Positions 57,826-61,554 are shown, numbered from the stretch's first letter. The stretch: DNA of 64,000 bases from Candidatus Bathyarchaeia archaeon (GCA_050015395.1 JBEKBM010000014.1:1-64000); one strand, 5' to 3'. Made by a program: numbers and translations. The notes: generated from the letters alone by a model not told the origin.

Positions 57826-58245
57826 TTAGGGAGATAGTAGTGTTGTTATGGTTTGAACGTCAACGTATTTCTGAGCTTTCGCTTTGAGTTGTTTATCTTC
57901 GGTTATGAGTTTGAGGTCTTTTTCTTTGGCAAAATAGATGTAGCTGGAATCATAAAAGGAGAGTTTCTCGTTTTTTGCGATTTCGAGGATTTTCTGAAAG
58001 GTTACTGCTTCGCTTGTTATCCAGTCAGTCTTCATTAGGATAGTCTGTGCGACCTTTTCCAGTGTCTTGGAATCTTCGGGCGTTAGGAACTTTGTTAGGG
58101 TGCTTTCCTTCCAAATCGCGTTTCCAACTTCGTAATAGGTCAAATCAAGAACTATGGAGTCTTGCAAGCATTCGATCACACTTTTGGCATTGGACTTCTT
58201 GATTAGAAACATGAATGCGCTTGCGTCGAGTAGGTAGCGCTTCAT
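57826..58245 (-). CDS. vapC: PIN-domain toxin
   Basis: YLLDASA, YEVGNAIWK, SFYDSSY, LITED. Confidence 0.92.
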   Translation of the reverse strand: MKRYLLDASAFMFLIKKSNAKSVIECLQDSIVLDLTYYEVGNAIWKESTLTKFLTPEDSKTLEKVAQTILMKTDWITSEAVTFQKILEIAKNEKLSFYDSSYIYFAKEKDLKLITEDKQLKAKAQKYVDVQTITTLLSP

Positions 58246-58466
58246 CGCTGGTCTCTTGATTCTCTTATGGCTCTTACGATTTCGTCGTCAGGGATTTTAT
58301 CTAAGATAATTTTCATTTCGTTAATCGCTTGGGCTAGTTCTGCGTCTTCTCGCTTCTTGACTTCGTCTTCTAGAGCTTCTCTGACGGTTTTGCTGACGTT
58401 TATTTTGTGCTTTCTTATCTTTTCTTTCAGGGACTTTTTAACCCTGACGGCGATTATCTCTGACAT
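58242..58466 (-). CDS. vapB: RHH/CcdA-like antitoxin
   Basis: IIAVRVKKSLKEKI...INVSKTVREAL, IRESRD; ATGA overlap with the toxin. Confidence 0.9.
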   Translation of the reverse strand: MSEIIAVRVKKSLKEKIRKHKINVSKTVREALEDEVKKREDAELAQAINEMKIILDKIPDDEIVRAIRESRDQR

Positions 58467-58607: not shown

Positions 58608-59645
58608 TTGACGCTTCTGGATAAAAAACTCGTGGTCGTTGGTGCGGGCGCTATTGGGTCAAGTGTGGTTGGGTGGGTCGCGCCTCAATATGAAAGGTTA
58701 TGGTTGTTGGCTCGAGGCGAAAGCGCAGCAACGATTAAAAATCAAGGGTTGAAATTTTACCTTAAAGGTGAAGAGGCTAAGGCTGTTCCTATATCAGTCA
58801 AGGTCATCGAGTCATTAAGTGAGATCTCCCTCCCTGACATAATAATTGTCGCCGTGAAAAACTATGACCTTGATGCGACAGCGCGGATGTTGCGGGAGCA
58901 GCTGGGGACTCATCAGCCTGTCGTTGTAGCGCTGCAAAATGGTGTTGAAAATCAGCGGGTTCTTCCCAAATATTTTACGAAGGTAATTTATGGCGTGGTG
59001 TGCTTCAATGCGTGGCGGGATGCTCCGGGGAGGGTGGGGCACCAGAAGCGTGGATATATAATTCTGGGCACGCCTGCGAATGATCTGCAGTCTGAGCAGC
59101 GGGAGGTTGCAGCTATTCTTCGGCGGGGGTTGGATTGTTCGCTCACGGACCGTTTGGAAGATGCGGTTCATTGTAAGTTGGCGGTTAACCTTACGAATGT
59201 TTTGACCACTCTTGTCGGTTTCCCGAACGTCCCTGACAGGTCCTTCAGTGAGGTTGCACGAATGTCGGCAAGAGTTATTTGGGAAGGGATTCAGGTTCTT
59301 CAGGCAGCGGGGTTCAAGGAGCATGAGCTCGGCAGTATCCCTTCTTGGAATACGATTAGAATGAGCGTTAGGCTTCCAGCATCAGTCATTAAAGTTTTTT
59401 ACAGATTTAGTGTGCGGGAAGAACTTGGCATGAATAGCACGGCGCAGGATATTTTCGCGGGGAAAGCCACTACTGAACTTGAATCTTTAAATGGGTACAT
59501 GTTGAGTCTTGCCCAGAAAGCGGGGGTGCCAATGCCCATCAACCAGACCATTTATGAAATCGCGAAGGAACGGTTTAGTCCGGATTTCGAGCCGATGGCG
59601 GAGAAGGAGTTGTGGGCTGCGATTCAAAATCGACTTAAACGGTAA
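58608..59645 (+). CDS. Ketopantoate reductase (PanE/ApbA) family protein
   Basis: VVGAGAIG, VKNYD, LQNG, KLAVN, STAQD...TELESLNG. Confidence 0.88.
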   Translation: MTLLDKKLVVVGAGAIGSSVVGWVAPQYERLWLLARGESAATIKNQGLKFYLKGEEAKAVPISVKVIESLSEISLPDIIIVAVKNYDLDATARMLREQLGTHQPVVVALQNGVENQRVLPKYFTKVIYGVVCFNAWRDAPGRVGHQKRGYIILGTPANDLQSEQREVAAILRRGLDCSLTDRLEDAVHCKLAVNLTNVLTTLVGFPNVPDRSFSEVARMSARVIWEGIQVLQAAGFKEHELGSIPSWNTIRMSVRLPASVIKVFYRFSVREELGMNSTAQDIFAGKATTELESLNGYMLSLAQKAGVPMPINQTIYEIAKERFSPDFEPMAEKELWAAIQNRLKR

Positions 59646-59772
59646 GGCAGTCGGCTGAGCTGAATATTCTTTAATTTTTCTATTTTTTATTCAATGCAAG
59701 CTTGAAAGGATTGTTTGGTTCTCTGAGGAAGTTAAGTTAATATAGCCGAGGGAAATAATTGCTTTCGTCTTC

Positions 59773-59810
59773 GGTAGTTTCCGTATATAACCTACCTTAA
59801 AAAACCCGGG
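59773..59810 (+). ncRNA. Candidate preQ1-I-like riboswitch (H-type pseudoknot)
   Basis: P1 GGTAG/CTACC, loop TTTCCGTATATAAC, tail TTAAAAAACCCGGG, P2 TCCG/CGGG. Directly upstream of queT. Confidence 0.6.
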
Positions 59811-60311
59811 TTGAATGAAATGAGATTAAATACTAAAAAATTGGCAGTTGTTACTGTTTTTGCCGCTTTGTATGCGGTTGGAGTTATTTTTTTGGCGCCG
59901 ATAAGTTTTGGGATCGGTCAAGTGAGGGTTGCTGATGCGTTGTTGCCGTTGTCGATGATTTTTGGGCTCCCAAGCGCCTTGGGCTTTAGTTTGGGCTGCA
60001 TAGTTTCTAATGTTTATGGCGGGCTTGGAATGATTGATATTGTTGGCGGTGCAGGTGCAAATCTTGTTGCTTGCACTTTAGCTTGGTATATTGGACGTAA
60101 GGGGAGGGGTGCTCAGCGGTTTCTGGGAACTGTTGCAGAAACAGTAGCCGTTGGTTTGATTGTTGGAGGATACCTCTCACTGATATTTCAGGTTCCTGTG
60201 GAAATCAGTCTCTTAGGATTATTTATTGGCGAAACGATAGCGATAAACCTTATAGGTTTTCCCCTGGAAGAAGCTATAAGGCGTAGCAAAATTTTTAGAA
60301 AATACAGCTAG
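59811..60311 (+). CDS. queT: QueT-family queuosine-precursor transporter (ECF S component)
   Basis: AALY......APISFG..QVRVADAL, LGC.VSN..G..G..D...G. Likely start ATG 59820. Confidence 0.9.
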   Translation: MNEMRLNTKKLAVVTVFAALYAVGVIFLAPISFGIGQVRVADALLPLSMIFGLPSALGFSLGCIVSNVYGGLGMIDIVGGAGANLVACTLAWYIGRKGRGAQRFLGTVAETVAVGLIVGGYLSLIFQVPVEISLLGLFIGETIAINLIGFPLEEAIRRSKIFRKYS

Positions 60312-60338
60312 AAGCTTAATTGTTCGAGAGAGAATGGG

Positions 60339-60457
60339 ATTTTGTTCAGGTTGTTTTGGGTTGCTTTTTTGGGGCAGGACTTGACGTGTTTGCAGGTTAC
60401 GTCTAGATTCGATTCTACGCGTCAGGGGGCGTCAAAGAACCCATTATGATGCGATTA
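60339..60457 (+). repeat. Element D: conserved leader plus degenerate 4 x 10-bp CGTCA array plus start relic
   Basis: attttgttcaggttgttttgggttgcttttttggggcagg...gtgtttgcaggttacgtc. Cores at 60400, 410, 420 and 430, then atgcgattaa (compare atgccgttaa). Confidence 0.85.
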
Positions 60458-60754
60458 AGGGCGAGCAGTCAAGAGAAAAATGCTGTATTAGAAGCCGTGT
60501 AAAGCATTGTCCATTGAGCCGACTAAAGTATTCAAGGAATAATAGATAGACAAGCTTGCAACTTGTTAGGGCATTAGTTTTGTTTTTTTGGTTACAAAAA
60601 TTGGAGACTTCTTGTTGATTTCATTATGAAGCCGCACTTTATTACTGTTGTTTGAGAGCTATAGCAAATTGCTGCTGTTGAGAATAGTTGGTAATGTGCA
60701 TAAGGTTTATGTATGTATTCAAAATGTATACAGATATGTTGGTTGAGTATCTGC

Positions 60755-61027
60755 ATGGAAGAAGTAGTGACATCCCGGGTTTCCGAAGAACTTGTAAAGA
60801 AGGTTGATCAAGCAGTTTCCAGAGGCTACTTCAAAAGCAGAAGTGAGGCTCTAAGAATAATTATAGAAGAATACCTAAAAGAGCATCCTGAACTATTTTT
60901 AGGCGACAAGGTTCAAGAATTGATCATGAAGGCGCCTGCCTTGGGCGATGAGGAGCTGGAACAAGTTGGCGCTAAACTGTTCAAAGGTATCAGCGTAGCT
61001 AAACTTGTGGCTGAAGGACGAGCTTAA
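60755..61027 (+). CDS. vapB: Ribbon-helix-helix antitoxin
   Basis: VVTSRVSEELVKKVD..V..G.FKSRSEALR; VAEGR tail; overlaps the PIN gene. Confidence 0.85.
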   Translation: MEEVVTSRVSEELVKKVDQAVSRGYFKSRSEALRIIIEEYLKEHPELFLGDKVQELIMKAPALGDEELEQVGAKLFKGISVAKLVAEGRA

Positions 61028-61554
61028 TGCTGCTCTATTTGGACACCAACGTTATCTTGGCAAGGTATGCCCCAAATGAATCGCAGCATGACAAAGCGAA
61101 AACGCTTCTCAGTAAAGTAGAGACGGGAGAGCTGTCTGCTGTGACTTCTGTATTAACTTTAGTGGAAGTGGTTTGCGCTACAGGCAGGGCTTATGAAAGG
61201 TTCGGTGACAAAGCGGAAGCGTTAGGGCGAGAAGAGGTAGCTGGAGCTTTCCTTCGAAGAGTCATAAATATCAAAAAGTTGGAGTTTATTCCCATGGGCG
61301 GCGAAGCCTCATTTAACGTTAATGATCGACGTGTGAAGCTTCCAGCATTATTTGCGTTGGCTCTGGAGATAGGTTCAAAGACGGGTCTCAAAACCTTGGA
61401 TACACTCCATCTGGCTTCAGCCTCTATAGCGTCGCGGATTTATGGAAGCAAAATTGATTATTTTGTAACTTTAGACGAGGACATGTTAAAACGACGCGAA
61501 GATATAAGCAGCTTGATAGAAAGCAGAGTTGTTTCACCAGCTGATAAGTTTTAA
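61027..61554 (+). CDS. vapC: PIN-domain toxin
   Basis: LYLDTNV, TSVLTLVE, KTLDTLHLASA, FVTLD. Confidence 0.9.
   Translation: MLLYLDTNVILARYAPNESQHDKAKTLLSKVETGELSAVTSVLTLVEVVCATGRAYERFGDKAEALGREEVAGAFLRRVINIKKLEFIPMGGEASFNVNDRRVKLPALFALALEIGSKTGLKTLDTLHLASASIASRIYGSKIDYFVTLDEDMLKRREDISSLIESRVVSPADKF

Follow-up and report, generated by a model that had tools for sequence, protein, structure and literature searches.

A conserved leader motif upstream of queT in Bathyarchaeia that may act as a preQ0 riboswitch

Do archaea control the uptake of 7-deazaguanines by means of a riboswitch? The question is raised by a short sequence block that stands directly upstream of queT in peat-soil Bathyarchaeia, here in a Candidatus Bathyarchaeia genome, and resembles class I preQ1 riboswitches in its layout. 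According to the portion of a 2017 survey available to us, archaea use very few riboswitch classes, mainly TPP and fluoride (PMC5473149), and the available text of a review of the preQ1 family names bacterial phyla only, the word "archaea" being absent from it (PMC11625349). We found no archaeal preQ or queT riboswitch in the full-text literature; supplementary lists of representatives could hold some. A preQ-type riboswitch in archaea would be new with respect to this literature, which, in the parts available, places preQ1 riboswitches in bacteria alone.

The DNA analysed is a stretch of 64,000 nucleotides (GCA_050015395.1 JBEKBM010000014.1:1-64000), hereafter called the window, to which all coordinates refer. 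The following features were read or predicted in 59400-60700, all on the plus strand:

59737-59744, plus strand: TATA-like TTAATATA, by direct reading
59737-59745, plus strand: TATA-like box TTAATATAG, probable archaeal promoter of queT
59766-59773, plus strand: predicted transcription start zone, 0-7 nt before P1, from a TATA box centred near 59741 and the usual spacing
59773-59777, plus strand: 5' strand of P1, GGUAG (GGTAG in the DNA)
59778-59791, plus strand: loop TTTCCGTATATAAC, 14 nt, first base T and last bases AAC, by direct reading
59778-59779, plus strand: L1, UU, by direct reading
59780-59783, plus strand: proposed 5' strand of P2, UCCG, complementary to 59807-59810
59784-59791, plus strand: L2, UAUAUAAC, which includes TATATAA at 59784-59790
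59791, plus strand: candidate ligand-specifying cytosine, last base of L2
59792-59796, plus strand: 3' strand of P1, CUACC (CTACC), by direct reading
59797-59806, plus strand: L3, UUAAAAAACC, the A-rich tail plus CC
59797-59804, plus strand: A-rich tail TTAAAAAA
59805-59810, plus strand: CCCGGG
59807-59810, plus strand: proposed 3' strand of P2, CGGG, overlapping the SD-like GGGU(UGA)
59808-59814, plus strand: SD-like GGGTTGA, 5 nt ahead of the ATG at 59820
between CCCGGG and the queT ATG at 59820, plus strand: TTGAATGAA
59820-60311, plus strand: queT, substrate-binding component of an ECF-type 7-deazaguanine (preQ0/preQ1) importer (Pfam PF06177)

All the motif elements listed in the original prediction (GGTAG, loop, CTACC, tail, CCCGGG and ATG) were found in their places when checked base for base. 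The second helix that it had proposed, between the UCCG of the loop and the CGGG of the tail, also has its basis in the sequence, as TCCG at 59780-59783 and CGGG at 59807-59810 are complementary, with one U.G pair, and the overlap with GGGTTGA is there, the SD-like GGGU having three bases in common with the proposed P2. The SD of the window is weak. An out-of-frame mini-ORF (ATGAAATGA, Met-Lys-stop, 59815-59823) overlaps the queT start codon; it is found in some relatives (e.g. L013 and L015) and is missing from others (L012 and L016).

The ORF at 59820-60311 matched the Pfam QueT family (PF06177) with 95.5 bits, the cut-off being 33.7, which confirms that an archaeal queT lies downstream of the motif; it is the sole QueT match in the genome. 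The upstream neighbour is a ketopantoate-reductase-like gene ending at 59645, and T runs (tttaatttttctattttttatt) at 59668-59692, about 25 nt past its stop, look like an archaeal oligo-T terminator that may separate this gene from the queT promoter. On either side of the locus lies a putative toxin-antitoxin pair, at 57826-58466 (minus strand) and 60713-61554 (plus strand), the genes of each pair overlapping or abutting; one consists of a PIN protein (29.2 bits) and a CcdA-like antitoxin (26.8 bits), and the other of an RHH protein (26 bits) and a PIN protein (34.6 bits).

The motif is almost certainly functional. A pattern in which loop and tail were fixed and the stem was left free matched the window once and none of 100 shuffles. 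When 185,579 species genomes (one per species, bacteria and archaea) were scanned with this stem-free pattern, 25 loci matched, 17 of which have a complementary stem and a queT-like ORF; 16 of the latter are labelled Bathyarchaeota or Bathyarchaeia, and one belongs to a bin labelled Chloroflexia. The eight bacterial genome matches have no complementary stem and were rejected as chance, and so were five of the 60 matches to metagenomes; the remaining 55 carry the stem, in the same block before the same gene. The contig of the uncultured Chloroflexia bin (L041) has a leader and a queT start of Bathyarchaeia type, which differ by few bases from those of L011 and L051, and it is probably mis-binned. 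Of 81 related genomes searched for QueT, 67 have the gene, and seven loci whose QueT is 66-100% identical to that of the window, retrieved through the protein and with no pattern used, have the same leader block. Once duplicates were removed, the block, which we call type A, was counted before queT in 19 distinct genome loci, and all stem-bearing copies, in these loci and in the 55 metagenome contigs, are of Bathyarchaeia type. This conservation of one block before one gene, in 19 genome loci and in 55/60 metagenome matches, indicates that the motif is not a product of chance.

The conservation of the block is extreme. Mean pairwise identity among the 19 loci was 0.41 in the 40 nt upstream of the motif, 0.99 in the first 12 nt of the motif, 0.93 in its last 22 nt, and 0.73 in the first 150 coding nt (0.83 at codon positions 1+2 and 0.53 at position 3). 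Variation is limited to three places, namely the middle of L2, the base after CGG and the bottom stem pair. GGTAG is kept in 18/19 genome loci and 51/55 metagenome copies (variants AGTAG, TGTAG and GGCAG), and CTACC varies in its last base only (CTACA, CTACT). The middle of L2 appears as TATATAAC, TATTTAAC, TACATAAC, TAGATAAAC, TAAAAAAC, TAATAAC, TAAATAAC and others, and the loop is A/T-rich in every copy, from genomes and metagenomes alike. L2 ends in AAC, and L1 is UU, in 7/7 of the loci found via QueT, where no pattern forced the AAC; the constancy of the L1 UU in pattern-found copies carries no weight, because the search pattern fixed those bases. In several relatives the tail reads CCGGTGA or CCGGTGAT (in RNA, CCGGUGA or CCGGUGAU), which provides a better SD, 4 nt before the ATG, with the first two G of this SD within the proposed P2. 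The tail CC lies 9-14 nt from the ATG in 18/19 loci; the spacer of the other (L050) was scored as 3 owing to an extra upstream in-frame ATG and is about 12 nt when counted from the second ATG. By these data type A is a strand-specific element under strong selection, lying between the start of queT and a TATA-like box that is itself conserved.

The box that had been predicted ahead of P1, TTAATATA, is present at 59737-59744, and similar ones are kept in the relatives: a TATA-like element (TTAATATA, TAATATA, AAATAG or TATATA) starts 27-36 nt before GGTAG in 16/19 loci, while the sequence surrounding it diverges among the 19. Archaeal TATA boxes usually lie about 26-27 nt from the transcription start. 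By this geometry a promoter role of the box is probable, and since it is conserved 27-36 nt upstream, the motif would open the queT mRNA.

RNA data came from two peat metatranscriptome runs of one study, as contigs only, with a 0.06 share of the stretch. Each run yielded a contig that is 95-99% identical to the window (a close relative) and runs from 59784 into queT; one of the two ends in adapter sequence. Both begin exactly at 59784, that is, 11 nt inside the motif and within the loop. With a depth of only 3.7-5.7 these contigs are unfit to define start site, strand or expression level, and their shared start could be a real RNA end, a lost 5' terminus or an assembly break. If 59784 were the true 5' end, P1 could not form. 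For the same reasons of depth and of contig nature, this start is retained as a caution only, and the absence of RNA cover upstream of 59784 does not count as evidence.

Known preQ1 families were then compared with the motif. At the gathering level no Rfam 15 family was found anywhere in the 64 kb window. The Infernal search with the Rfam PreQ1 model (RF00522, gathering score 39 bits), by which the original prediction could be checked, did not pick out the motif, either at the gathering level or at E<=10 on 59640-59900; over the whole genome, with 150 of 623 candidates scored, RF00522 listed 14 weak matches, the best reaching 16.7 bits, and the motif was not among them. PreQ1-II (RF01054) and preQ1-III (RF02680) likewise matched neither the window, at gathering or at E<=10 on 59640-59900, nor the type B leaders described below. 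What Rfam returned for the window and the type B leaders in the gathering and E-value modes (snoRNA, CRISPR repeat etc.) was discarded as junk.

The same RF00522 model matched 44 of 121 bacterial genomes, all from the class to which an Alicyclobacillaceae genome belongs, 24 of them over the cut-off, and true bacterial members scored 29-55 bits. From an alignment of 28 bacterial aptamers we built a covariance model and ran it with filters off on 59650-59900. Its best hit was 59773-59805 on the plus strand, in the correct register (stem, loop, stem, A-run), with only 5.9 bits. The 28 aptamers are invariant at G.GGUUC, CCC.C and AAAAACU, where the window has GGUAG-UUU, C-CUACC and AAAAAACC-CGG; in L3 the window holds UUAAAAAA, with one or two C before CGG, and in the 28 aptamers this part reads AAAAAACUA and contains no spacer. 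The length of the loop is no hindrance, because bacterial members with loops of 14-15 nt ending in AAC or AC exist (L159, L164).

Several features of RF00522 are nevertheless found in the window, namely a 5-bp stem with a G:C pair on top (GGUAG/CUACC), an AAC at 59789-59791 directly 5' of the P1 3' strand, and a position upstream of a 7-deazaguanine gene (QueT). In the accessible part of the family review, UU adjoining the P1 5' strand marks types I and III, AC before the P1 3' strand marks types II and III, and the specificity cytosine adjoins the P1 3' strand on its 5' side, after an A in types II/III or a U in type I (PMC11625349). Because the class I layout is there and the family model failed, we set the motif apart as an archaeal variant and not as a member of RF00522.

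Folding energy and covariation were of little help for type A. By predicted energy the motif folds no better than its shuffles (z from +0.6 to +0.9), and two true bacterial aptamers also fall inside their shuffle distributions (z of -0.07 and -0.99); minimum-free-energy folding is uninformative, as neither the motif nor true aptamers stand out. Covariation across Bathyarchaeia queT leaders, named as a check in the original prediction, is almost nil inside the motif. The upper four pairs of P1 are identical in every copy except a single one from a metagenome, in which GGCAG:CTACC gives a C.A mismatch. Of the 55 metagenome copies, 50 have G:C at the bottom of the stem, one has A:U, one U:A and two a mismatch there, and overall the compensated variants, AGTAG:CTACT and TGTAG:CTACA, stand against four mismatched ones (L046, L058 and two metagenome copies), so that mismatches are at least as many as compensations. 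CCG and CGG are complementary but invariant, and the fourth pair of P2 is U.G, U:A or U.U. The prediction of a preQ1-I-like riboswitch therefore stands in part: selection, the class I order of parts, the SD overlap and an arcTGT without full QueC (see below) speak for it, and the family models and covariation do not.

More distant QueT genes, in the same order as the window's organism, are preceded by a longer and G+C-rich leader, here called type B. Its core is GCGGGUG...CCGUUCCGC...AAACCCCGG...GGGAGG, and its consensus is UUGGCGG-GUGAG...CUCCYA-CCCG-UU-CCGCCAA-(A-rich)AAAACC-CGGG-AUA-GGGAGG, followed by the start codon. It was found in 59 of 63 other archaeal queT loci (L018-L039 and L065-L138; e.g. 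L023:1974-2062, minus strand), which gave 58 distinct sequences. A strict type B pattern (GCGGGUG...CCGUUCCGC...CCCGG) matched 160 of 401 genomes of the class, the reversed control matching none, and beyond the class it occurs in the same phylum, for example in 19/32 genomes of one family; the window's genome gave 0 matches, and the loop of the window has no anti-SD segment. Gathering and E-value searches found no Rfam family for these leaders, and we found no publication on them.

The structure of type B is supported by compensatory change. In the 58-leader alignment the stem and the CCCG:CGGG helix are 91.7% paired, as compared to 86.8% in shuffles (0/500 reach the observed value) and 36-60% with slid partners, and 26 cells are changed on both sides vs. 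7.3 in shuffles. The bottom stem pair is GC in 51 leaders, AU in 3, GU in 2 and UA in 2; the top stem pair is GC in 54 and CG in 4; the outer P2 pair is CG in 39, UA in 8 and unpaired in 11. The CCG of the loop is invariant (58/58), and the linker before CGG reads AAACC or AAAACC, with three C invariant (58/58). The loop's pyrimidine segment and the SD form a duplex whose mean energy is -11.4 kcal/mol vs. -7.0 for shuffled tails, and in 21/58 leaders at most 5 of 200 shuffles match this duplex; the duplex-energy figures are approximate, the tail being mis-parsed in 6/58 rows (L038, L066, L076, L077, L079 and L088). Across the class the loop covaries with its downstream partner (UCCGAC:GUCGGA, CCUUCC:GGAAGG, CCCUCU:AGAGGG), even where the partner is not SD-like. 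An alternative hairpin, CGGGU:ACCCG, was rejected, as it is 96% paired with no compensatory change and is broken in four GGCGC variants; it is kept only as a possible ON-state fold.

Among 29 ORFs that follow pattern-found copies, 25 are QueT, one is a weak radical-SAM match and one a weak ECF S-component; two have no family, probably because the wrong frame was chosen. One copy, L109 (G378:C27), has an ORF of 104 aa after it in place of QueT; the radical-SAM match of this ORF is weak (27.4 bits, under the cut-off), and it may be a QueE-like gene. In G013, G039 and G064, queC (209-214 bits) lies directly after the type B-led queT, and type B often stands at the head of queT-queC operons, as end-product feedback would lead one to expect.

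The QueT of the window is 54-59% identical to those in other families of the same archaeal order. The closest one outside the type A group (L017, from G066; 59%) has neither leader type; in its long upstream region a GGCGG...CCGCC hairpin lies some 100 nt from the start codon. Bacterial QueTs are at most 38% identical to that of the window (22 with QueT among the 121 genomes of the class holding an Alicyclobacillaceae genome). A transfer of gene and leader from that class was considered and rejected, as there was no sign of it: its QueTs reach 38% at best, vs. 54-59% in archaeal relatives.

Which ligand the motif would sense is suggested by the genome, which is 98.9% complete. It encodes an archaeosine-type tRNA-guanine transglycosylase (arcTGT, 274 bits) and a PTPS/QueD-like gene. 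Full QueC is absent from it, only N-terminal PP-loop matches of 21-26 bits being found, which cover the first 61-64 of 210 model positions and lie inside long unrelated ORFs. Four genomes with a type A leader on their sole QueT (G019, G003, G026 and G034) likewise have no full QueC; in G030 and G047, where another queT accompanies the one led by type A, a full QueC lies next to that other copy. The presence of arcTGT together with the absence of full QueC fits preQ0 salvage, and the window's organism appears to depend on preQ0 import. In the available part of the literature, preQ0 is the base that archaea insert into tRNA (PMC5372724). Leaders of types A and B that head preQ0-supply genes, together with this apparent dependence on import, fit an end-product repression by preQ0.

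For these reasons we favour, with somewhat better than even confidence, the explanation that the motif is a translational OFF riboswitch for preQ0 at the 5' end of the queT mRNA. The aptamer would span 59773-59810 (38 nt) and, if transcription starts where the TATA-like box suggests, would open the message. It would fold as an H-type pseudoknot, as in class I preQ1 riboswitches, with P1 GGUAG/CUACC, L1 UU, P2 UCCG/CGGG and an L2 ending in AAC, and the A-rich L3 would lie along P1. Binding of a 7-deazaguanine between P1 and P2 would lock P2 and so hide the first bases of the RBS (GGGU in the window, GGUGA in relatives), with the result that less QueT importer would be made. In the window's organism the ligand would be preQ0, the archaeosine precursor to be imported.

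A conserved leader RNA that senses no metabolite, such as a protein or small-RNA site or a constitutive element for mRNA stability or ribosome loading of queT, is an unlikely alternative, to which we nevertheless give some weight. Conservation with no covariation suits any sequence-specific recognition, and the failure of the Rfam and bacterial models as well as the unremarkable folding energy would agree with it. It leaves unexplained, however, why the motif agrees with a known ligand pocket in the order of its parts and in its bases at three junctions, why the bacterial queT family stands under preQ1 aptamers at the same distance, and why the sister leader heads queT-queC operons, as end-product feedback would have it. 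Reading the block as DNA, with GGTAG-N13-15-CTACC as the operator of a dimeric transcription factor at the queT transcription start, is quite improbable. The arms do form a perfect 5-bp inverted repeat just downstream of the TATA-like box, both are invariant as a protein site would be, and a dimer would also keep two-arm changes symmetric in the palindrome; but conservation peaks outside the repeat, at bases that lack its symmetry (TTTCCGT, AAC, TTAAAAAACC), the distance to the start codon is fixed, and the proposed P2 includes a U.G pair. Moreover, the type B stem passes via G.U (2 cells) between G:C and A:U, and its loop covaries with an SD far downstream, both of which are sensible in RNA only.

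The block could also be promoter DNA, either with the TATATAA of the loop as the TATA box of a near-leaderless queT mRNA, the scenario named in the original prediction as its possible refutation, or with a start at 59784. All loops are A/T-rich, the window has another such stretch, AAATAATT, at 59753-59760, about 27 nt ahead of 59784, and two RNA contigs start exactly at 59784. On the other hand, these contigs include 59784-59819 joined to queT, upstream of any start that a TATA box in the loop would direct, and thus disfavour the leaderless mRNA. The TATA reading is weakened by loop variants, TACATAAC and TAGATAAAC among them, and of the two upstream A/T-rich sequences relatives have kept TTAATATAG, 27-36 nt ahead of GGTAG, but not AAATAATT. 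As to a start at 59784, contigs from two runs of one study, at their low depth, cannot define RNA ends, and a promoter has no need for flanking complementary arms or for a CC-CGG tail. We regard this explanation as highly improbable.

The window motif and type B share the QueT family downstream and the place between promoter and start codon. Their 5-bp stems are at the same position and differ by two pairs changed on both sides (GGCGG:CCGCC vs. GGUAG:CUACC), and both have CCG in the loop and an A-rich linker ending in CC, then CGG. Type B differs in a long 5' loop segment with an anti-SD that pairs to a strong SD, which the window motif does not have, and in having only UU before the stem 3' strand and no AAC, where the window has UAUAUAAC; it is G+C-rich and widespread, whereas the window motif is A/U-rich and minimal. 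A tentative idea, which we hold to be doubtful, is that the two are architectures of one archaea-specific class of preQ0 riboswitches. On this view, lineages of Bathyarchaeia that lost QueC would have shed the anti-SD module of type B, leaving the minimal A/U-rich form, and the likeness of this form to the preQ1-I fold would be due to later convergence and not to descent from bacterial aptamers. In both forms the A-rich linker closes on its 3' side with an invariant CC, placed at the helix junction, and this shared element might be what reads the ligand. Should the riboswitch prove true, a 38-nt archaeal preQ0 aptamer would tie riboswitch control to archaeosine rather than to queuosine, and types A and B would be a natural pair for studying aptamer shrinkage or convergence.

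As regards known systems, preQ1-II (RF01054, the COG4708/queT motif of Streptococcaceae) is similar in that queT is controlled through an SD buried in a pseudoknot, as described in the available text of the review (PMC11625349). It differs in being about twice the size, with an HLout pseudoknot and P1-P4, in being confined to Bacillota, and in matching neither the window nor type B.

PreQ1-I (RF00522), types II/III especially, comes closer. It differs in being bacterial and binding preQ1, the window motif being archaeal, with preQ0 as its likely natural ligand, and in scoring, since the motif lies below every model threshold. UUC is invariant in the 28 bacterial examples and is UUU in the window; the second stem pair is G:C in bacteria and A:U in the window; P2 is (C)UAG:CUA(G) in bacteria and CCG:CGG in the window; and the bacterial AUAAAAAA runs straight into the P2 3' strand, where the window has one or two extra C. 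Size is alike (about 34-38 nt), and so are the 5-bp P1 with G:C on top, the U(U) after its 5' strand, the loop ending in AC, and the run of six A, then a short 3' strand overlapping the SD, for which pairing back into the loop is proposed in the window. The motif also lies directly before queT, as in bacteria, where comparison of RF00522 and QueT coordinates placed preQ1-I directly upstream of queT in G829, G877, G834, G808, G847 and G783. If it is indeed a riboswitch, the smallest riboswitch fold known would gain a fourth solution at the level of sequence.
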